Shown here: positions 14,652 through 36,196 of the stretch, piece by piece | Numbering within the stretch: position 1 is the stretch's first letter | How the letters are laid out: each line of letters begins with the position of its first letter | Origin: Terriglobia bacterium | GTDB lineage: Bacteria > Acidobacteriota > Terriglobia > Acidiferrales > UBA7541 | NCBI GenBank assembly: GCA_963695545.1 | Contig: OY968796.1 | Location: forward strand, 3,424,001 to 3,488,000 | Length of the DNA: 64,000 nucleotides | Reading direction: 5' to 3' | The notes under the pieces: model-generated | Databases searched by the model: none | The model's input: the letters and a program-made list of their open reading frames with translations, nothing else | Told to the model about the DNA's origin: nothing | Position numbers and translations under genes: made by a program

Positions 14652-15650
14652 TCAGAATTTTCTAGCCGCGGCGGACTTGCCGGTGATGGCGGCGATGATT
14701 TGCTTCCCGTGGAAGCGGCCGTTTTCGATGAAAATTTCGCTGGTGTGGTTCCCGCCGATCACTACGCCGGCGAGGTAAATTCCGGGGACATTACTTTCAA
14801 GCGTTAGTGGGTCGAGTGCGGGCTTGTTGTTCGCGGGGTCGAGCGCGACACCGAGGCTCCGCAGAAAAGAGAAATCCGGGTGATAGCCAGTGAGGGCGAA
14901 GACCTGCTCTGCGGGAAGCGATAGCTCGCCGGCGGAATTCGAAATGCGCACGCTTTCGGGCTCAAAGCGCACGACTTCCGTATCAAAGAACGCGCGCACC
15001 TGGCCGGCCTTGATGCGATTTTCGATGTCGGGGCGAACCCAATACTTGATCGTCGAGCCGAGTTCGGCGCGGCGATGCACGAGCGTGACGCGGACCCCGG
15101 CGCGATAAAGATCGAGCGCGGCTTCGGCGGCGGAATTTTTGCCGCCGACCACGACGACATCGCGGCGCCAGAATTCATGTGGATCGGTGTAGTAATGCGA
15201 GACGTTCGGCAGATCTTCGCCGGGGACTTCCATCTTATTCGGCAGATCGTAATAGCCCGTGGCCACCACTATTTTCGCGCTGCGGAAGTCGTGGCGCTCG
15301 CCTGAGGCGTCGCGCGTTTCGACGTCAAACTGGCCGTCGCCGCCGGAGACGCGCATGACGCGCTGCCATAGGCTGAGCTCCAGTTGATAGTGCTCGGCGC
15401 ACTTGCGATAATACTTGAGCGCTTCGACGCGCGTGGGCTTCTCGGACGGGCTGGTGAGCGGCAGATCGCCGATTTCGAGCAGTTCCGGCGTCGTGAAAAA
15501 AACCATATTCGTGGGATAGTGGTAGATCGAATTGCAAAGGCTGCCCTTGTCGATCACCAGGGGACGCAGGCCGGCGCGCACGGCTTCGATGGCGGTGGCC
15601 AGGCCAGTTGGTCCGGCGCCGATGCAGATTAGATCGTAGCGTTCAGGCAT
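14652..15650 (-). CDS. ypdA: YpdA-family putative bacillithiol disulfide reductase
   Basis: GAGPTG; NSIYHYPTNMVFFTTPELLEIG; KPTRVEALKYY; GGKNSA; FIENGRFHG. Confidence 0.9.
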   Translation of the reverse strand: MPERYDLICIGAGPTGLATAIEAVRAGLRPLVIDKGSLCNSIYHYPTNMVFFTTPELLEIGDLPLTSPSEKPTRVEALKYYRKCAEHYQLELSLWQRVMRVSGGDGQFDVETRDASGERHDFRSAKIVVATGYYDLPNKMEVPGEDLPNVSHYYTDPHEFWRRDVVVVGGKNSAAEAALDLYRAGVRVTLVHRRAELGSTIKYWVRPDIENRIKAGQVRAFFDTEVVRFEPESVRISNSAGELSLPAEQVFALTGYHPDFSFLRSLGVALDPANNKPALDPLTLESNVPGIYLAGVVIGGNHTSEIFIENGRFHGKQIIAAITGKSAAARKF

Positions 15651-15785
15651 AAAACGAGTTTGCCTTGCGACGCAGTCGATTGCAACATCGGCGCCGTGCG
15701 GCGAATGCGGCCTCGCGAACCGTGATTCACAGAGGCGTAACACGCGCGTAACGCGGCCTTCACCGAATTACACGATGCTCTCCCG

Positions 15786-16580
15786 ATGGCCATAGAAGGA
15801 ATGCCGAATGCAGAAACGCTGCGAGCCACCACTCGCCGGCCTCGCGACCCGCGAGGAGGGCGCGTTTTCGGCGGCGTGGGCGGCTTCGCGGAGGCGCGGC
15901 GAAAATATCCCGGCGCGCTGATCGTGGTGGAAGGAATCGACGGCTCGGGGAAAAGCACGCAGCTTTATTTGTTGAAGCGCTGGCTCGAGATCGGCGGTTA
16001 CCGCATACACTTCACGGAGTGGAATTCCTCGCCGCTCGTGAAATCAACGACCAAGCGCGGCAAGCAGCGGCGTTTGCTGACTCCCACAACTTTCTCTCTG
16101 CTACACGCGGCGGATTTCGCCGATCGATGCGAACGCCAGATTCTGCCGCTGCTGCACGGCGGATATTTAGTGCTGGCGGATCGCTATGTTTATACGGCGT
16201 TCGCGCGCGACGTGGCGCGGGGCTGCTCTCCCGTGTGGCTGCGGAATTTATATCGCTTCGCACCGGTGCCCGATATCACGTTTTATTTTCGCGCGCCGCT
16301 GGACGTTGCGGTGGACCGCATCATCGCCGGCAGGCCGCGCTTGAAATTTTACGAAGCGGGCATGGACCTGAATCTTTCGCTGGACCGCGCGGAAAGTTTC
16401 CGGATGTTTCAAGCGCGCATTCAGGAGCAATACGATTCGATGGTGGAATCGGACAATTTCATCGTGATGGACGGCACGATGACGGTGAATCGTCTGCAAA
16501 AGCAGATGCGCGAATTGGTGCAGAAACGCGTAGACCTCGGGCGGTTTGCGCCGAAGCGGCAGGCGGAGGGGCCGGTATGA
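15786..16580 (+). CDS. Thymidylate-kinase-fold protein, candidate PPK3 catalytic subunit
   Basis: Intact P-loop EGIDGSGKST; TEWNSS in place of the TMK xREP motif; LTPTTFSLLHAADFADR…ILP; DRYVYTAFARD. First gene of an operon with ppx and sixA. Confidence 0.8.
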   Translation: MAIEGMPNAETLRATTRRPRDPRGGRVFGGVGGFAEARRKYPGALIVVEGIDGSGKSTQLYLLKRWLEIGGYRIHFTEWNSSPLVKSTTKRGKQRRLLTPTTFSLLHAADFADRCERQILPLLHGGYLVLADRYVYTAFARDVARGCSPVWLRNLYRFAPVPDITFYFRAPLDVAVDRIIAGRPRLKFYEAGMDLNLSLDRAESFRMFQARIQEQYDSMVESDNFIVMDGTMTVNRLQKQMRELVQKRVDLGRFAPKRQAEGPV

Positions 16581-17401
16581 AGCGGGCGGCGCATCACGCG
16601 GGGCGCGACGGTGCGAAGCGCGGAAGAAAATCCGCGGCACCGGCGGCTGCGGACGGAGCCGCGGCGCTGGCGGCGCACTTTCACGGAATCCCGTTGCCGG
16701 GTGTGAAGACGGAAGAACTGGGCGGCTCGCTGATTGTAGTCGAAGGCACGGACGGATCAGGGCGGTCGACGCAGATTTCGCTGTTGACGGAGTGGCTGGA
16801 GTCGGAAGGGTTCGCGGTGCAGACGATGGGGCTGCGGCGCTCGTTCCTGGTCGCCAAGGACATCGACACGCTGCTGGAAGAAAACGCCATCACGCGCATG
16901 ACACTCACGCTGATGTACGCAACGGATTTTTTCGATCAACTCGAGCATCGCATCCTTCCGGCGTTGCATTCGGACTTCATCGTGCTGGCCGATCGCTACT
17001 TCTACACGCTGATCGCGCGCGCGGCGGTGCGCGGAATTGAGCGCGGATATTTGCATGGCTTGTACGCGATGGCGCTGCGGCCGGACCTGACGTTTTGGCT
17101 CGACGTGAGTCCAGAGGCGGCGTTCGAGCGCGAGTTCCGGAAATCGCACGCGATCAGTTACTGGGAATCCGGGCGCGATATGTCGCTCTCCAACGATTTG
17201 TTTCAGTCTTTCATCCGCTATCAGGCCCGAGTGCGCAAGGAATTCCGCGGATTTTCCGCGCGGCATAGTTTCATCGAATTGAACGGCGAGAACAGCATCC
17301 CCGCGGTGAACCAGCAACTGCGCAAGCGCATTGCCGCGCACCTGGGTATTTCCCGCACGCGCTATACGCCTTCGGCGGCGTTGGCCCACCTGTGGCGCTG
17401 A
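16577..17401 (+). CDS. Second thymidylate-kinase-fold paralog with altered P-loop, candidate PPK3 regulatory subunit
   Basis: EGTDGSGRST (Lys to Arg); YATDFFDQLEHRILP; DRYFYTLIAR. ATG 16577 overlaps the upstream stop (ATGA). Confidence 0.78.
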   Translation: MKRAAHHAGRDGAKRGRKSAAPAAADGAAALAAHFHGIPLPGVKTEELGGSLIVVEGTDGSGRSTQISLLTEWLESEGFAVQTMGLRRSFLVAKDIDTLLEENAITRMTLTLMYATDFFDQLEHRILPALHSDFIVLADRYFYTLIARAAVRGIERGYLHGLYAMALRPDLTFWLDVSPEAAFEREFRKSHAISYWESGRDMSLSNDLFQSFIRYQARVRKEFRGFSARHSFIELNGENSIPAVNQQLRKRIAAHLGISRTRYTPSAALAHLWR

Positions 17402-18396
17402 GACTCGTCGAACCCCTGCGCATCGCTGCCGTGGACGCGGGCTCAAACGCGATCCGCCTGATCGTGGCGCGGGCTTACGGGGCCGGGCGCTGGGAGACGG
17501 TAGAAACGCTGCGCCTTCCGGTGCGCCTGGGACACCACGCCTTCTCCGGTGGACGCCTCAATCAGAGAACGCTGGCGGAGGCTGTCGCCGGCTTTCGCGA
17601 ATTTCAACTTCACATGGAGCGCAGCGGCGTTGTGGCCTATCGCGCCGTGGCCACGAGCGCGGCGCGCGAAGCGCGGAATCGCGAGCGGTTGCTCGATCTT
17701 GTGCGCAGACGCGCGGGACTCGAGCTTGAAATTATTTCGGGCGACGAAGAAGCGCGGCTGGTTCGCGTGGCTGTGGCGCGGGCGTTCGCGGGCCACGCGA
17801 CGCCGCGCGTGATCCTGGATTTCGGCGGCGGAAGCCTGGAGATCAACTGGATGCGCGGCGCTGAAGTGGAGCGCGTGGCGACGCTGCCTCTCGGAGCTGT
17901 GCGATTGATGGAAGCCTACCGCGCCGCGGGCGCGATTCCCGAGGAGCGCGCGGCGGAACTCGTGCGGCATGTGGAGCACGTGCTCGCGAGCGCGCTGGGC
18001 GACCGGCGTCCTCGCGCCGTGCGGCTGCTCGTGGCGTGCGGCGGAAACGCGGAATTTTTGGCGCGCGTTGCGGCGGGAGCGGCGCACAATGGATTCCCTG
18101 CGCTCAGTCTGCACGTGCTGCGTGCGCGGCTGTGGCAAATTCTTCATTTGGACGCGGACGAGCGCAAACGGACGTTTCACGTGCGGCGCGATCGCGCGGA
18201 AGTGATGGGCGTGGCGGCACTGGTGCTGCTGACGGTGGGGCGCTGGCTGCGGGCGCGGAGTTTTGTGATCCCTGGAGTTGGCGTGCGCGAAGGCTTGCTG
18301 ACGGAAATTACGCAAACGATGTTCGCTCCGCGCGGGCCGCTTACGGCACGAGAAGCGCCCAGCGGGCGCGCGCGGAGACCAGCGCGCTCGAGATGA
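17392..18396 (+). CDS. ppx: Ppx/GppA exopolyphosphatase (short form, no C-terminal HD domain)
   Basis: DAGSNAIRL, ATSAAREARN, ISGDEEARL, DFGGGSLE, LGAVRL, GVREG. Start overlaps the upstream gene by 10 bp. Confidence 0.92.
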   Translation: MALRLVEPLRIAAVDAGSNAIRLIVARAYGAGRWETVETLRLPVRLGHHAFSGGRLNQRTLAEAVAGFREFQLHMERSGVVAYRAVATSAAREARNRERLLDLVRRRAGLELEIISGDEEARLVRVAVARAFAGHATPRVILDFGGGSLEINWMRGAEVERVATLPLGAVRLMEAYRAAGAIPEERAAELVRHVEHVLASALGDRRPRAVRLLVACGGNAEFLARVAAGAAHNGFPALSLHVLRARLWQILHLDADERKRTFHVRRDRAEVMGVAALVLLTVGRWLRARSFVIPGVGVREGLLTEITQTMFAPRGPLTAREAPSGRARRPARSR

Positions 18397-18413
18397 GTGC
18401 GTAGGAGAAAACG

Positions 18414-18953
18414 ATGCTGCTCTATTTAGTCCGACATGGAATTGCCGTGGACCGCGCGCCGAGCGGCGCGGGGCGCGGCGCTTCGCACTCGTTGCATGCG
18501 GGGCACGACATGATGCCCGACGCCGAGCGGCCGCTGACGCTGCGCGGGCGCAAGCGCAGCCGCGCCGCGGCGGAAGGATTGCGCGCGCTGGACGCGAAGC
18601 CCGACGCGATGCTCTCGAGCCCGCTGGTGCGCGCGGAACAAACGGCCAAACTTTTCGCGCAGGTGTTCGACTTCCCTGCCGACGAAATTCGGATTACCGA
18701 CAGCCTTAAATCCAGCGGCGTGCCGGCCGATCTGCTTCGCGAAGTCGGGAAACTCGGGGCGCACGAAGTGATGTGCTTCGGCCACGAGCCGCATTTGAGC
18801 CACGTGATCGCGTACATCCTGCATTCGCGCAACAACGGAACGGAATTGCGGCGCGCGGGCGTGGCGTGTTTTGAGTTGAAAACTTTGTCGCCGCCTTCGG
18901 GAATGCTCGTCGGGCTCTACAGCGCGAAGGCATTGCGGCTGCTGGGCAAGTGA
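18414..18953 (+). CDS. sixA: SixA-like phosphohistidine phosphatase
   Basis: LYLVRHG, ERPLTLRG, SSPLVRAEQTA, GHEP; RBS AGGAG; 17 bp after ppx. Confidence 0.88.
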   Translation: MLLYLVRHGIAVDRAPSGAGRGASHSLHAGHDMMPDAERPLTLRGRKRSRAAAEGLRALDAKPDAMLSSPLVRAEQTAKLFAQVFDFPADEIRITDSLKSSGVPADLLREVGKLGAHEVMCFGHEPHLSHVIAYILHSRNNGTELRRAGVACFELKTLSPPSGMLVGLYSAKALRLLGK

Positions 18954-19015
18954 CGCATCTCCCTTCCCAACTCAGCTGACTGACGCTTCGAGCGCGAGTA
19001 ACAAGCACCAATCCC

Positions 19016-19429
19016 CTAAATTTGGCCAGGCACGCCGCCCCATTCTTCGGGATCAACGTCGGCGATCGACTGGGAAAACGTCCAGTGGTGGCCGGCAAAA
19101 TCCTCCGCGTTGTACTGGCGTTCTCCGTAGGGATAATTTTTCGGCGGACGCAGGATGCGCACTCCGAATTTCACGGCGCGGTCATAGTGGCGGTCGACGT
19201 CGTCCACACGCACCATAACGCTGCGGTGGGCGCGATCTGCATCCGCGGCTGATTGCTCTGTCAGCACGACAGCTCCGTCGCCCACGTTGAGCTGTGCGCG
19301 ATGGCTGCCCATTCCGATGCGCGAAGTGAAACCGAAGGCGTTGCAAAGCCACTTCGTCGCCTCGATCACGTCCGCGTAAGGAAGCTCCGGAATAACCGTG
19401 GATCGCGGCATGGAACGATTCGAGAGCAT
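19016..19429 (-). CDS. VOC/glyoxalase family protein
   Basis: VIPELPYADV…WLCNAFGF; V-x-VDDVD-x-HY; YGERQY-x-AED-x-x-GHHWTF. Confidence 0.88.
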   Translation of the reverse strand: MLSNRSMPRSTVIPELPYADVIEATKWLCNAFGFTSRIGMGSHRAQLNVGDGAVVLTEQSAADADRAHRSVMVRVDDVDRHYDRAVKFGVRILRPPKNYPYGERQYNAEDFAGHHWTFSQSIADVDPEEWGGVPGQI

Positions 19430-19458: not shown

Positions 19459-20319
19459 CTAGGCGGCGTCGTTGGTGGCGGCGCGCTCGGATTGCTGCTC
19501 CAGCTCGGTGATGACTGAGCGGAGGGCTTGGATCAATTCCTGGCGCGCGACGTGGCTGCGGAGGAATTGAACTCGGAGTTTGAAGGACTGATCTTCAGGC
19601 TCGAAATTGAAAAGATAGGGCTGAGGGCGCGGGCCGGATTGTTTTTCGTCGCGGCGCTCGCGGCGGGCTTCATCGCGCGTGAGGCCGCCTTGGAGGATGC
19701 GCGCCACGGCTTCGGTCATCTTGCGTTCGTTGGGCTGGCGCGCGACCTGGAGAAGGAGCGATTTTGAAACCACGCCGCGCTCGATGCAGCGGCGGCGCAA
19801 GCTTTCGGGGATCGTTCGCAGCGAAAGCGTTTCCGTGACGGACGAGCGGGCGCGGCCGATTTTCTGCGCGATATCGTCGTGCGTGTAATCGAAAACTTCG
19901 GCCAGGCGCTGCAGACCGTCGGCTTCTTCAAACGGCGTCAGATCTTTGCGCTGGAGATTTTCGATCAGCGCGATCTCGAGAGTTTCGGCGTCGTCGGCGA
20001 TTTTTTCGATGCAAGGCAGCTCGGTGAGGCCGGCGGCTTGCGAAGCGTGGAAGCGGCGCTCGCCGGAGATGATGTAGTAGGTATCGTCGCGCGGCATGTA
20101 GCGCACCAGCAGCGGCTCGAGAACGCCCTTTTCACGCACGGAGTCTGTGAGCTCGCGCAAATCGCCCAGGGCTTTGCGGGGCTGATCCGGGTTGGGCTGA
20201 ATCTTATCGATCGGAATCATGCGCCCGATCGCCGCGCCGCTAAAACTGGCTAGCGTTTCGACGTAATGGGCGTCATGCCGCATCTTCAGTGTGACGGGCA
20301 ACCCGATCCGCTTCGACAC
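19459..20319 (-). CDS. parB: ParB/RepB/Spo0J family partition protein
   Basis: PNPDQPRK, GVLEPLLVR, IISGERR (CTP-binding), IENLQRKDL, HTH. GTG start at 20319 overlaps the end of parA. Confidence 0.9.
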   Translation of the reverse strand: MSKRIGLPVTLKMRHDAHYVETLASFSGAAIGRMIPIDKIQPNPDQPRKALGDLRELTDSVREKGVLEPLLVRYMPRDDTYYIISGERRFHASQAAGLTELPCIEKIADDAETLEIALIENLQRKDLTPFEEADGLQRLAEVFDYTHDDIAQKIGRARSSVTETLSLRTIPESLRRRCIERGVVSKSLLLQVARQPNERKMTEAVARILQGGLTRDEARRERRDEKQSGPRPQPYLFNFEPEDQSFKLRVQFLRSHVARQELIQALRSVITELEQQSERAATNDAA

Positions 20320-21073
20320 GTTGGATGACCTCCTGAGCAAGCTTGGTGTACTCCTTGGCGCCGGGCGATTTGGGCGCGAAGGTGAGAATCGTTTCTTTGT
20401 ATGCGGGACTCTCTTCGAGGCGCACGTTCTTGCTGATGCGTGTTTTGAAAAGCGCGGGACCGAAGACGTTGCGAATCTGATCGTGCGTGTCGCGGGAGAT
20501 GTTCGTGCGCTTATCGAAAAGCGTGATGACCACGCCGAGGACCTTGAGGCTGGGATTGGGGCGCGCGCGAATGCGCTCGTAGGTTTCGAGCAAATCGTCG
20601 GTGCCTTCGATGGCGAAGTAGGCGGCTTGGATCGGCACCACGAGATGCGTCGAGGCGACGAGAGCATTTACGGTAAGGATGCCGAGAGCGGGCGGCGTGT
20701 CCAGAACGATGTAATCGAAATCTTTCAGGATCGGCGTCAGCACGTCCTTCAACTTGAACGGCGCGTCGAATTGACCGGAGAGCTGCTGTTCGAGCTTGGC
20801 CAGGCCGAGCTTGGCCGGCGCAACCGAGAGGTTCGCGTTCTTGGTGGAGCGAATCGCGGAGGACATCGCGGCGTGATGCTCGCCGAGAACGTCAAACATG
20901 GTGGTTTCGATTTCGGCGAGATCGAAAAAGGCGATGGTGGAGTTGGCTTGCGGGTCGAGATCGATCAGCAGAGTTCGCTTGCCGCTCTTCGCGATGGCCG
21001 CGGCCAAATTAATGGCCGTCGTGGTTTTTCCGACGCCGCCCTTCTGGTTGGCAATCGTGAGGATCGTGGTCAT
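20273..21073 (-). CDS. parA: ParA/Soj family ATPase
   Basis: NQKGGVGKTTT deviant Walker A, DLDPQAN, DTPP. Confidence 0.93.
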   Translation of the reverse strand: MTTILTIANQKGGVGKTTTAINLAAAIAKSGKRTLLIDLDPQANSTIAFFDLAEIETTMFDVLGEHHAAMSSAIRSTKNANLSVAPAKLGLAKLEQQLSGQFDAPFKLKDVLTPILKDFDYIVLDTPPALGILTVNALVASTHLVVPIQAAYFAIEGTDDLLETYERIRARPNPSLKVLGVVITLFDKRTNISRDTHDQIRNVFGPALFKTRISKNVRLEESPAYKETILTFAPKSPGAKEYTKLAQEVIQRVEADRVARHTEDAA

Positions 21074-21244
21074 ATTGTTCAAATAATGGCGACCCGCGCG
21101 GGAGGGTTTGCAACCCCATCCCTACAAATTGTGGTGCTGGAGGCACACGCCACCAGACACGCTCAATCTACCCGCCGTGGCGGGCCAGCGCAAGTGAAAA
21201 TATCCGCGGCTTGGGTAGTGGGAAGCCGCCGGAAACCATGCACG

Positions 21245-33856: not shown

Positions 33857-36196
33857 ATGCGTCCTGTGCTTCGGTTGATCGACCGGTACATCCTCCGCGA
33901 GGTTTTTTCGCACACGCTGTTGGGCCTGGCGGTTTTCACTTTCGTTTTTTTCGTTCCACAACTTGTCCGGCTGATGGATCTGGTGGTGCGGCACACCACC
34001 ACTTGGGGCGACGTCGGCGCGCTCTTCGTGTGCACCCTGCCCGGCATGCTGACGTTCACGCTGCCGATGGGTTTGCTGGTTGGCATGCTGATCGGCCTGG
34101 GCCGTCTCTCGGCAGATAGCGAACTCATCGCCATGAACGCCCTGGGCATGGGGCCTCGCAGCGTATTGGTTCCCGTGGGAATGCTGGCGTTCGCATTCAC
34201 GGCGATCACGGCGGTGCTCACCATTTGGATCGCGCCGGCCGCTGTGCACACGTATCGCTCCCTGCAAAATCGGATCGTCTCTTCACAGGCATCGTTCGAG
34301 GTAGAGCCGCGCGTTTTCGACGAGCGGTTTCCTCATCTCGTACTCTACGTTCAAGATGTCTCGGCGGTCGCCACCCGATGGCATGGCGTCTTCCTGGCGA
34401 GTACCGACCCGCAGCAGGATTCTCGCCTGACCTTGGCGGAAGAAGCGATTGTAATTGCCGACCCACAGCAGGGCAAGCTTGACTTGCACTTGCGCGACGG
34501 AAGCGTCCACCAAGTGGACGTCGCCGATCCCGATCACTACACGCTGAGCGCTTTCGGCCAACGCGATTGGCCGATTGACGCTTCGAGTCCCGATACCGAG
34601 CAAGCGCCCGTCCCAACGCTCGCCGAATTGCCGACCGCGGATCTGCTGGCGGGGCGCATTCCCTACCGCGGCGTCGATCGGGCGCTCGATGTGGTGCAAG
34701 CGCGCGTGGAGCTGGAACGCCGTTTCGCGTTCCCCGCCGCGTGCATCGCGTTTGCGCTGCTTGCGATTCCGCTGGGCTCGCGGCCGCGACGCGGCGGCCG
34801 CGCGGTCGGCGTGCTGATCACGCTGCTGCTGGTGAGCGCCTACTACGTGCTGTTTACGCTCGGGGCCGCGCTCGCCCGCGATGGGACGCTGCCGGCATGG
34901 GTCGGCATCTGGATGCCCAACGTTTTGGTCGCGGCCGTGGGCATGGCGCTCCTGCCGCGCATGGGAAGAATCGCAAGCGAGGGTCGGATCACCCGCGCCC
35001 TGGCCCGGATCGCGGAACGCCGCGCGGCCAAGAAAAAGTTTCAGGGGGCGGCCGGTGAAGCGTCGGCGATTCAGAAATCGCGCGTCCGGCCGAGGCGCGC
35101 AGGACTCGGTTCTGTGCTGGATTGGTATGTGCTCCGGGGCTTCCTGTTTTATTTCGTGCTGCTACTGGCGGGATTCATTCTGCTGTTCGAGACATTCACG
35201 TTCTTCGAACTCCTGGACGACATCACGCAACACCGCGTCGGCTGGATCGAGGTGCTGAACTATTTCCGCTTTCTGAGCATCTCGAACTTCTATCAATTCT
35301 CGCCGCTCGCCGCGCTCACCGCGGTGCTGGTCGCGCTCGGTGTGCTGGCGAAGAACAACGAGATCGTGGCTTTCAAAGCCGCCGGTATCAGCTTGTATCG
35401 CGTATCACTGCCTCTGCTCACTGTGGGACTGCTTCTGGCGGGTGGGCTAGTGGTGCTCGACGACACCTATCTTCCGTACGCCAACCAGCGCCAGGACGAA
35501 CTTTACAACGAGATCAAGGGCCGGCCGCCGCAAACCTACTTTTCTCCGCAGCACCAGTGGATCTTTGGCGAGAACTCGAAGATCTACAATTACGATCTGT
35601 TCGATTCCGACCACAATCTGTTCGGCGGCCTGAGCGTTTTTGAGCTCGACCCCACGACCTTCCAATTGCGCCGCCGCGTCTATGCCGCGCGCGCCCACTG
35701 GTTGGCGCAGCAGCACACCTGGATTCTCGAATCCGGCTGGATACGCGATTTTCAAGACGGACGCGTCACGAGCTACGTCCCATTCGTCGGCAATGCCCTG
35801 CCGGAGCTCGATGAGCCGCCCGACTATTTCAAGCGCGAGGTGCGCCAATCGAATCAGATGAATTGGCCGCAGCTGCGGCGCTACATCGACAGCCTCGAAC
35901 GCGCGGGCTTCGATGTGGCGCGCCTCTCCGTGCAGTTGTACAAGAAACTCGCGTTTCCTCTGATCGCGCCGATCATCATTTTGCTGGCGATTCCCTTCTC
36001 ACTTCTGGTCGGCACGCGCGGAGCCGTCGGCGGACTGGCGCTTGGCATCGGCATCGGCATTCTCTACTGGGCGGTTTCGGCGCTGTTTGAGGCCATGGGA
36101 GCGGTCGGCCAGTTGCCACCGTTCATGGCCGCGTGGTCTCCCGACTTTATTTTCGGATTTCTCGCTCTGTACTTTTTTCTTCGCATGCCGACATGA
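33857..36196 (+). CDS. lptFG: Fused LptF-LptG LPS export permease
   Basis: Two tandem permease modules (IDRYILRE…GRLSADSELIAM; LDWYVLR…LAKNNEIVAFKAAGIS) joined by a basic linker. ATG 33857. Confidence 0.92.
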   Translation: MRPVLRLIDRYILREVFSHTLLGLAVFTFVFFVPQLVRLMDLVVRHTTTWGDVGALFVCTLPGMLTFTLPMGLLVGMLIGLGRLSADSELIAMNALGMGPRSVLVPVGMLAFAFTAITAVLTIWIAPAAVHTYRSLQNRIVSSQASFEVEPRVFDERFPHLVLYVQDVSAVATRWHGVFLASTDPQQDSRLTLAEEAIVIADPQQGKLDLHLRDGSVHQVDVADPDHYTLSAFGQRDWPIDASSPDTEQAPVPTLAELPTADLLAGRIPYRGVDRALDVVQARVELERRFAFPAACIAFALLAIPLGSRPRRGGRAVGVLITLLLVSAYYVLFTLGAALARDGTLPAWVGIWMPNVLVAAVGMALLPRMGRIASEGRITRALARIAERRAAKKKFQGAAGEASAIQKSRVRPRRAGLGSVLDWYVLRGFLFYFVLLLAGFILLFETFTFFELLDDITQHRVGWIEVLNYFRFLSISNFYQFSPLAALTAVLVALGVLAKNNEIVAFKAAGISLYRVSLPLLTVGLLLAGGLVVLDDTYLPYANQRQDELYNEIKGRPPQTYFSPQHQWIFGENSKIYNYDLFDSDHNLFGGLSVFELDPTTFQLRRRVYAARAHWLAQQHTWILESGWIRDFQDGRVTSYVPFVGNALPELDEPPDYFKREVRQSNQMNWPQLRRYIDSLERAGFDVARLSVQLYKKLAFPLIAPIIILLAIPFSLLVGTRGAVGGLALGIGIGILYWAVSALFEAMGAVGQLPPFMAAWSPDFIFGFLALYFFLRMPT

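Follow-up and report, generated by a model that had tools for sequence, protein, structure and literature searches.

A probable family-3 polyphosphate kinase operon with a divergent second subunit in a Terriglobia genome

In a 64,000-nucleotide stretch of a Terriglobia bacterium genome (GenBank assembly GCA_963695545.1, contig OY968796.1, positions 3,424,001 to 3,488,000; hereafter, the window), we analyzed a four-gene operon, A-B-ppx-sixA, which very probably encodes a family-3 polyphosphate kinase (PPK3) of the phylum Acidobacteriota, with protein A as the catalytic subunit and protein B activating it in a heteromer, along with genes for polyphosphate (polyP) turnover in which PPX trims the polymer. 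PPK3 enzymes and their occurrence in bacteria have been published before, and the operon is largely a known system with a divergent second subunit. What is new here is that protein B keeps the arginine of the DRX motif and has a lysine-to-arginine change in Walker A, as do all 121 B subunits examined from outside the Sulfolobales-type loci. The heteromeric PPK3 operon had been proposed from the bare sequence (the original prediction) and is supported here by phylogenetic trees, by a separate tmk gene, and by conserved linkage to ppx.

The reference system is the pair Saci_2019/Saci_2020 of the archaeon Sulfolobus acidocaldarius, in whose genus PPK3 was first characterized. According to the text of Hofmann et al. 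(JBC 2026, PMC12995831), Saci_2019 is a polyphosphate kinase without dTMP kinase activity, Saci_2020 is inactive and activates Saci_2019 at a 1:1 ratio in an alpha2beta2 complex, and the resulting SaPPK3 favors ATP formation from polyP and ADP; the account of this pair in the original prediction agrees with the paper. The same text describes the PPK3 clade as mainly bacterial dTMPK paralogs in operons with ppx, sixA, and CHAD genes, identifies PDB entry 5h70 as STK_15430, a homolog of the catalytic subunit (cPPK3), and ascribes the inactivity of the regulatory subunit (rPPK3) to loss of the DRX arginine and of a basic cleft.

Protein A resembles catalytic PPK3 subunits

Protein A carries the three motifs singled out in the original prediction, TEWNSS, LTPTTFSLLHAADFADRCERQILP, and DRYVYTAFARD, and all of them align to PDB entries 2plr and 5h70. 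A search of the PDB with protein A returned 2plr, 4nzy, 4rzx, and 5h70 as the best matches (E 7e-62), against E 1e-13 for the best true Tmk, and protein A shares 49% identity and its motif set with the 5h70 protein. The AlphaFold2 model of A (pLDDT 92.1) also has 5h70 as its top structural match (Z 28.4, root mean square deviation [rmsd] 1.6, 207 residues aligned; best true Tmk, Z 24.2). Judged by alignment, both P-loop and DRX arginine are intact, the EP/dTMP residues are absent, and basic residues are shared with STK_15430. Across a census of 132 A-type sequences, drawn from 80 close loci, 36 other Acidobacteriota, and 16 archaeal sequences, the Walker A lysine, K56, W79, N80, K93, H107, R114, and the DR pair are all invariant, including in the sequence identical to 5h70.

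The dTMP-binding region of canonical Tmk, marked by an EP or FP motif, is replaced by TEWNSS in A and by TMGLRRS in B. The lack of an xREP motif in A, which the original prediction had pointed out, is real but not diagnostic by itself, because the genome's own tmk has FPRY at this place. The segment after WNSS has a net charge of +6 in A and −3 in B, with means of +5.0 and −0.6 over 61 pairs, a crude measure given that A proteins of Sulfolobales type reach only +1 to +2. Neither protein matched the PPK2 profile PF03976 at E 0.001.

Both proteins group with PPK3 rather than with Tmk

Trees were built with IQ-TREE from 53 rows (LG+G4) and 39 rows (LG+C20), and they separate PPK3, with A and B included, from true Tmk at 100/99 support, in line with the phylogenetic placement expected beforehand. 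All second subunits in the trees, namely B and the archaeal partners bearing a DG motif, form one rPPK3 group (100/100). Six very divergent partner domains (those of L167-L169 and the C-terminal halves of P0144, P0165, and P0172) were left out of both trees, and the LG+C20 mixture-model tree was built without L001 and L155. The 251 genomes of the archaeal phylum searched gave 16 further A-type matches (E < 1e-50), and the A-type protein of locus L126 equals 5h70 over 213/213 residues. The distances of A and B track each other over 61 pairs (Mantel r 0.94, among kin that are not independent). The closest named loci are mostly labeled Ca. Acidiferrales or Acidobacteriota. One 2970-bp contig labeled as Bathyarchaeia (L056, G301:C234) carries A, B, and ppx that are 81, 72, and 45% identical to the present locus; it is probably acidobacterial DNA placed in the wrong bin and was kept out of the archaeal count.

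The genome has a separate tmk and two PPK2 genes

The host genome (4.16 Mb, one contig, 93.8% complete) contains a third gene matching PF02223 immediately upstream of holB (G000:C1:3862256-3862819, L001), a site that we take to be the usual position of tmk. This gene falls in the Tmk group, on a long branch, and is the cell's tmk, so that the separate canonical copy looked for is present. It belongs to the FPRY type, has its highest score on NF005923, and stays below the cut-off of the NCBIfam dTMP-kinase profile TIGR00041 (83.25 bits), which A passes at 84.1 and B misses at 80.5; a pipeline could thus name A, and not tmk, dTMP kinase. The expectation that both operon genes would be annotated in this way holds for A and for the many B homologs that JGI names dTMP kinase, but B itself lies under the cut-off.

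Two PPK2 genes are found elsewhere in the genome, above the NCBIfam cut-offs TIGR03707 and TIGR03709, and no PPK1 was found at this completeness. The operon had been called a self-contained module, which overstates the case, since with two PPK2 genes present A and B are not the cell's only polyP kinase. The host does not follow the tendency of PPK3 genomes to lack both PPK1 and PPK2 that is described in PMC12995831.

PolyP-related neighbors and fusions recur with PPK3

Of 561 confirmed stretches, the best 80 were used to count neighborhoods. The B gene comes after A in 79 of these loci, ppx is present in 78 and sixA in 72, the full A-B-ppx-sixA order occurs in 72, and the gaps lie mostly at contig ends; a CHAD gene within 5 kb was seen in 43 and a PPK2 gene in 30. 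The proposed linkage to ppx and sixA is therefore conserved in other genomes, and so in part is that to CHAD, but no CHAD gene was found in the host genome, operon included. Around more distant bacterial and archaeal loci, genes for ppx, sixA, CHAD, PhoU, or a metallophosphoesterase lie nearby in varied order, and several of 20 distant bacterial loci have none of these polyP-type neighbors. Just downstream of the B gene in distant Acidobacteriota (L178, L181, L182, L184, and L186), there are open reading frames (ORFs) of 110-135 aa without a Pfam match, which mostly precede CHAD or a metallophosphoesterase.

Full A-B fusions make up 31 of 83 longer homologs of A, and the cPPK3-rPPK3 fusions (P0127, P0284-P0319) include Alicyclobacillus. 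PPX-A fusions were found in Phycisphaerales (P0324-P0341), and fusions of A and B with the HD domain of PPX in P0144, P0165, P0172, and P0259, one of them from Ignavibacteria. These arrangements lend indirect support to a physical partnership of A and B and to a link with polyP; one possible fusion is mentioned in the text of PMC12995831.

A single NUDIX-cPPK3 fusion (P0362) was also seen, as was a set of proteins joining a cPPK3-like domain to a DUF2252 kinase-like domain and usually to a major facilitator superfamily (MFS) domain, in which the Walker lysine, WN, and DR are kept in 33/33. This set comprises P0354, P0358, and P0373 from EukProt as well as P0346-P0349, P0352, P0357, and P0374-P0396, from Elusimicrobiota where named, and three of its members, eukaryotic-looking, have an N-terminal SPX domain. 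From their domain content, the cPPK3-DUF2252-MFS proteins are candidate membrane-linked polyP kinases. A literature search returned no paper on the cPPK3-DUF2252 fusion, and all matches to the SPX-MFS fusion in the ESM Atlas stayed under 0.9.

PPK3 is near-universal in the host family

Of 143 host-family genomes, 136 have a PPK3 match (E < 1e-30), or 132 of 139 when four unpublished positives are set aside, against 0 of 7 genomes in the sister families. Two PPK3 pairs occur in 29 of the 143 genomes, the second pair being about 58% identical; in L189, L190, L191, and L193 the second pair has no ppx, sixA, or CHAD near it, and in L189 it lies tail-to-tail with ppk1. PPK1 was found in 72 of the 143 (one match weak), and 69 have PPK3 together with a strong PPK1 (two unpublished). 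Across a phylum sample of 300 genomes (three unpublished, one of them PPK3-positive), 47 have a PPK3 match below 1e-40, followed by a gap to 1e-18, and PPK1 is present in 9 of these 47 versus 170 of the 253 PPK3-negative genomes, among kin that are not independent. We rejected the idea that PPK3 simply replaces PPK1: it fits the phylum sample as a trend but not the host family, where 69 genomes hold both.

Bacterial PPK3 is described in the text of PMC12995831 as scattered and mostly found without PPK1 or PPK2, whereas in the host family it is near-universal and often accompanied by both. In its Data S1, PPK3 is scored as 1 in Alicyclobacillus sp. TC and, out of 47 Acidobacteriota rows, in 10 genomes of Chloracidobacterium; the 31,788 rows searched, of 47,545 in all, contain none for Ca. 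Acidiferrales. The authors' preprint (10.1101/2024.08.28.610084) places 'members of the Acidobacteriota' among the few bacterial homologs. The picture of bacterial PPK3 thus shifts from a few scattered cases to near-universal presence in one Acidobacteriota family defined by metagenome-assembled genomes (136/143), and surveys of polyP metabolism based on ppk1 and ppk2 alone miss PPK3.

Protein B keeps the DRX arginine and changes Walker A

Protein B is 36% identical to A over 211 aa. In the PDB search its best match reached E 7e-35, against 4e-11 for the best true Tmk, and its AlphaFold2 model (pLDDT 91.8) is closest to 5h70 (Z 27.8, rmsd 1.9, 203 residues aligned; best true Tmk, Z 25.3). At A positions 78, 107, and 114, B has G, Y, and Q, which it shares with the rPPK3 type. 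The B census of 121 sequences was taken from 78 close loci, 35 other Acidobacteriota, and 8 archaeal sequences, and every one of them has the Walker A arginine, keeps DR, and has tyrosine in place of H107. The Walker A arginine and DR are kept in the A-B fusions as well, and G22, G27, D82, D104, R117, and R150 are invariant in the B alignment.

The Sulfolobales-type loci (L126-L133) are defined by a partner with DG instead of DR. All eight partners show this replacement, four with lysine and four with arginine in Walker A; the Saci_2020-like partner has lysine, and the N terminus of the L127/L128 partner matches the residues encoded by the published saci_2020 primer. Over the sequences compared, DRX loss is thus specific to the Sulfolobales type and not family-wide, and the DG state looks derived. 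By its position in the trees B is an rPPK3 by descent, yet its LADRY departs from the published motif criterion of a replaced DRX arginine. This comparison was made with the text of PMC12995831, whose figures S14/S19 may show bacterial rPPK3 motifs.

The divergent pairs of L167-L169 were counted separately from the motif census. Their A-type proteins have RWAS for EWNS, and their partners have neither P-loop nor DRX motif; within about 6 kb, ppx, sixA, and CHAD genes were not found, and PPK1 is present in all three genomes.

Proposed mechanism and comparison with known systems

By analogy to SaPPK3, protein A would bind ADP or ATP at its intact P-loop and polyP in the basic cleft that replaces the dTMP pocket, preferring the reaction polyP(n) + ADP -> polyP(n-1) + ATP, with the reverse at high ATP/ADP. 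Protein B would be made 1:1 with A, bind it, and activate it. B itself is probably catalytically dead or very slow, a view suggested by the Walker A lysine-to-arginine change and loss of the basic cleft and not by DRX loss. The short PPX would trim polyP, probably with low processivity.

Like Sulfolobus PPK3, the operon has two tandem Tmk-fold paralogs, catalytic then regulatory, with ppx and sixA and with tmk elsewhere, and B, which has no basic cleft, clusters with the archaeal partner. Unlike Sulfolobus PPK3, B combines the DRX arginine with the changed Walker A, the operon has the order A-B-ppx-sixA without a CHAD gene, its PPX lacks the C-terminal domain, and two PPK2 genes are present in the genome. 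The predicted bacterial PPK3 operons in the text of PMC12995831 belong to the same family and include the same phylum. A and B share with canonical Tmk (PF02223/TIGR00041) their fold (Z 24-25), P-loop, and DRX motif, and differ from it in their 25-33% identity, separate clade, and replaced dTMP-pocket motifs. Class II PPK2 of two domains, such as P. aeruginosa PA3455 as presented in PMC12995831, likewise pairs an active with an inactive P-loop kinase unit in a polyP-dependent nucleotide kinase, and PPK3 also exists as a two-domain fusion; however, class II PPK2 phosphorylates AMP, and A and B belong to a different subfamily without a PF03976 match.

Weighing the PPK3 assignment against alternatives

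Several observations weigh against the PPK3 assignment or its details. The approximately unbiased (AU) test did not reject the A lineage forced beside Tmk (p 0.074), a test that mostly probes the attachment point of a distant outgroup, and was borderline for the B lineage forced into cPPK3 (p 0.049). The cPPK3 group is paraphyletic in both trees, so that the monophyly stated in the preprint was not recovered in either, and a long branch carries the Sulfolobales-type partners. Since B keeps the DRX arginine, contrary to the published rPPK3 criterion, the inactivity of Saci_2020 is not simply transferable to it. The polyP cleft in PMC12995831 rests on docking, and with two PPK2 genes the argument that A and B must be the kinase for want of another is void here. 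Finally, our literature searches found no biochemically characterized bacterial PPK3 and no further PPK3 paper; the original claim of novelty survives to this extent, but bacterial operons, including those of Acidobacteriota, had already been predicted in PMC12995831 and its preprint.

Were A and B instead additional Tmk-family kinases for (deoxy)nucleoside monophosphates, next to ppx by chance, their Tmk fold, Pfam match, and the passing TIGR00041 score of A would be explained, and the AU result for the A lineage would fit. We regard this as highly improbable: the 5h70-identical protein also passes TIGR00041 while its S. acidocaldarius homolog has no dTMP kinase activity (PMC12995831), the genome has its own tmk, another motif stands in place of that of the dTMP pocket, and polyP genes are repeatedly found nearby in bacteria and archaea and also as fusion partners. 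Somewhat less improbable, though still unlikely, is that the pair descends from PPK3 and now serves another phosphoryl acceptor, such as AMP, GDP, pyrophosphate or short polyP, or a ligand related to (p)ppGpp that the pair would handle together with the short Ppx/GppA protein. The frequent coexistence of PPK1 and PPK2 with PPK3 (strong PPK1 in 69/143 family genomes) and the 29 genomes with two pairs leave room to specialize, and the short PPX is the genome's only Ppx/GppA, but the active site of A has the same residues as the archaeal cPPK3 set and the neighborhood stays polyP-themed.

Within the PPK3 assignment, B may be more than a scaffold, its arginine-variant P-loop and DRX arginine binding a nucleotide or phosphate ligand as an allosteric energy-charge sensor or as a slow second active site, a proposal we hold only tentatively. 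The Walker A arginine and DR in 121/121 non-Sulfolobales B subunits and in the fusions, together with the six invariant positions of the B alignment, agree with it, and lysine-to-arginine changes in Walker A often, but not always, leave ATP binding without hydrolysis (as reported in PMC6254361). Against this, the same source reports that the change abolished binding in Msh2/Msh6, the Sulfolobales-type partners lack the DRX arginine in 8/8 and have lysine in 4/8, so that these residues can change while the subunit is kept, and the L167-L169 partners have no P-loop at all. An equally tentative extension would make the form with Walker A arginine and intact DRX arginine the ancestral, majority rPPK3, a pseudokinase that binds a ligand, responds to ATP/ADP or phosphate, and determines in which direction PPK3 runs, with the inert scaffold of Sulfolobus as a derived special case; in a large acidobacterial family from soil, PPK3 would then be the core polyP kinase, retained by vertical descent, and PPK1 accessory.

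On the favored PPK3 assignment, genes called dTMP kinase are probably those of a polyP kinase, and their annotation should be corrected. A mesophilic A+B pair would offer an easy first bacterial PPK3 to assay and a test of the regulatory subunit's role, and would be a possible ATP-regeneration enzyme.

Operon anatomy and the short PPX

The four same-strand genes and their junctions agree with those first described (Table 1); B and ppx overlap by 10 bp, and a 17-bp gap with AGGAG ahead of the ATG separates ppx from sixA. The ATGA junction of A and B may allow translational coupling. GC content at the third codon position is 0.71-0.79 in the four genes versus 0.46-0.53 at position 2, and in this respect the ORFs behave as real genes. 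Both A and B matched PF02223 in the Pfam profile search, and the sixA product scored 65.5 bits on TIGR00249, under the cut-off of 74.5. A 460-aa ORF from GTG 16019 was rejected as the start of B because the top homologs are about 250-290 aa long.

Table 1 Features of the A-B-ppx-sixA operon (positions in the window)
Feature	Position	Strand	Length	Motifs and basis
Protein A, cPPK3-type (catalytic) subunit	15786-16580	+	264 aa	Tmk fold; GIDGSGKST Walker A; TEWNSS; KRGKQRR basic patch; H107; R114; DRY; ORF, PF02223, PDB matches, tree
A/B stop/start overlap ATGA	16577-16580	+		Sequence
Protein B, rPPK3-type (regulatory) subunit	16577-17401	+	274 aa	Tmk fold; GTDGSGRST Walker A (Lys-to-Arg); acidic patch replaces basic; DRY kept; ORF, tree, motif census
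ppx, Ppx/GppA-family exopolyphosphatase, short form	17392-18396	+	334 aa	GTG start; PF02541
sixA, SixA-like histidine phosphatase	18414-18953	+	179 aa	RHG motif; PF00300/TIGR00249

The ppx gene, the sole Ppx/GppA family member found in the genome, encodes catalytic domains I-II without the C-terminal domains III-IV (HD-like), ending where 520-aa orthologs run about 200 aa further, a short form that the original prediction had passed over. The C-terminal part is present in 75 of the best 80 loci, and no remnant of it was found elsewhere in the genome (tblastn, E<0.01). A broken or split ppx was rejected, as the cut lies at a domain boundary, the catalytic motifs are undamaged, and L007, L008, L180, and L188 have the short form too. 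Short PPX enzymes without the C-terminal region are described in PMC3411833 as active and less processive. The host lineage has lost both accessory polyP-binding modules, HD and CHAD.

Upstream of the operon lies a gene for a YpdA-type reductase and downstream one of the glyoxalase family, both on the opposite strand. A promoter scan of 15500-19200 found no sigma-70-like site, and the 7 terminator-like matches were close to the mean of shuffled sequence, 4.3 (sd 1.9). The cumulative GC-skew maximum falls at about window position 35170 (G000:C1:3459172), opposite dnaA (1.364 Mb) and parS-like sites (1.19 and 1.28 Mb), and thus the window probably spans the replication terminus. A parA/parB-like pair is located at window positions 19459-21082, far from the origin.

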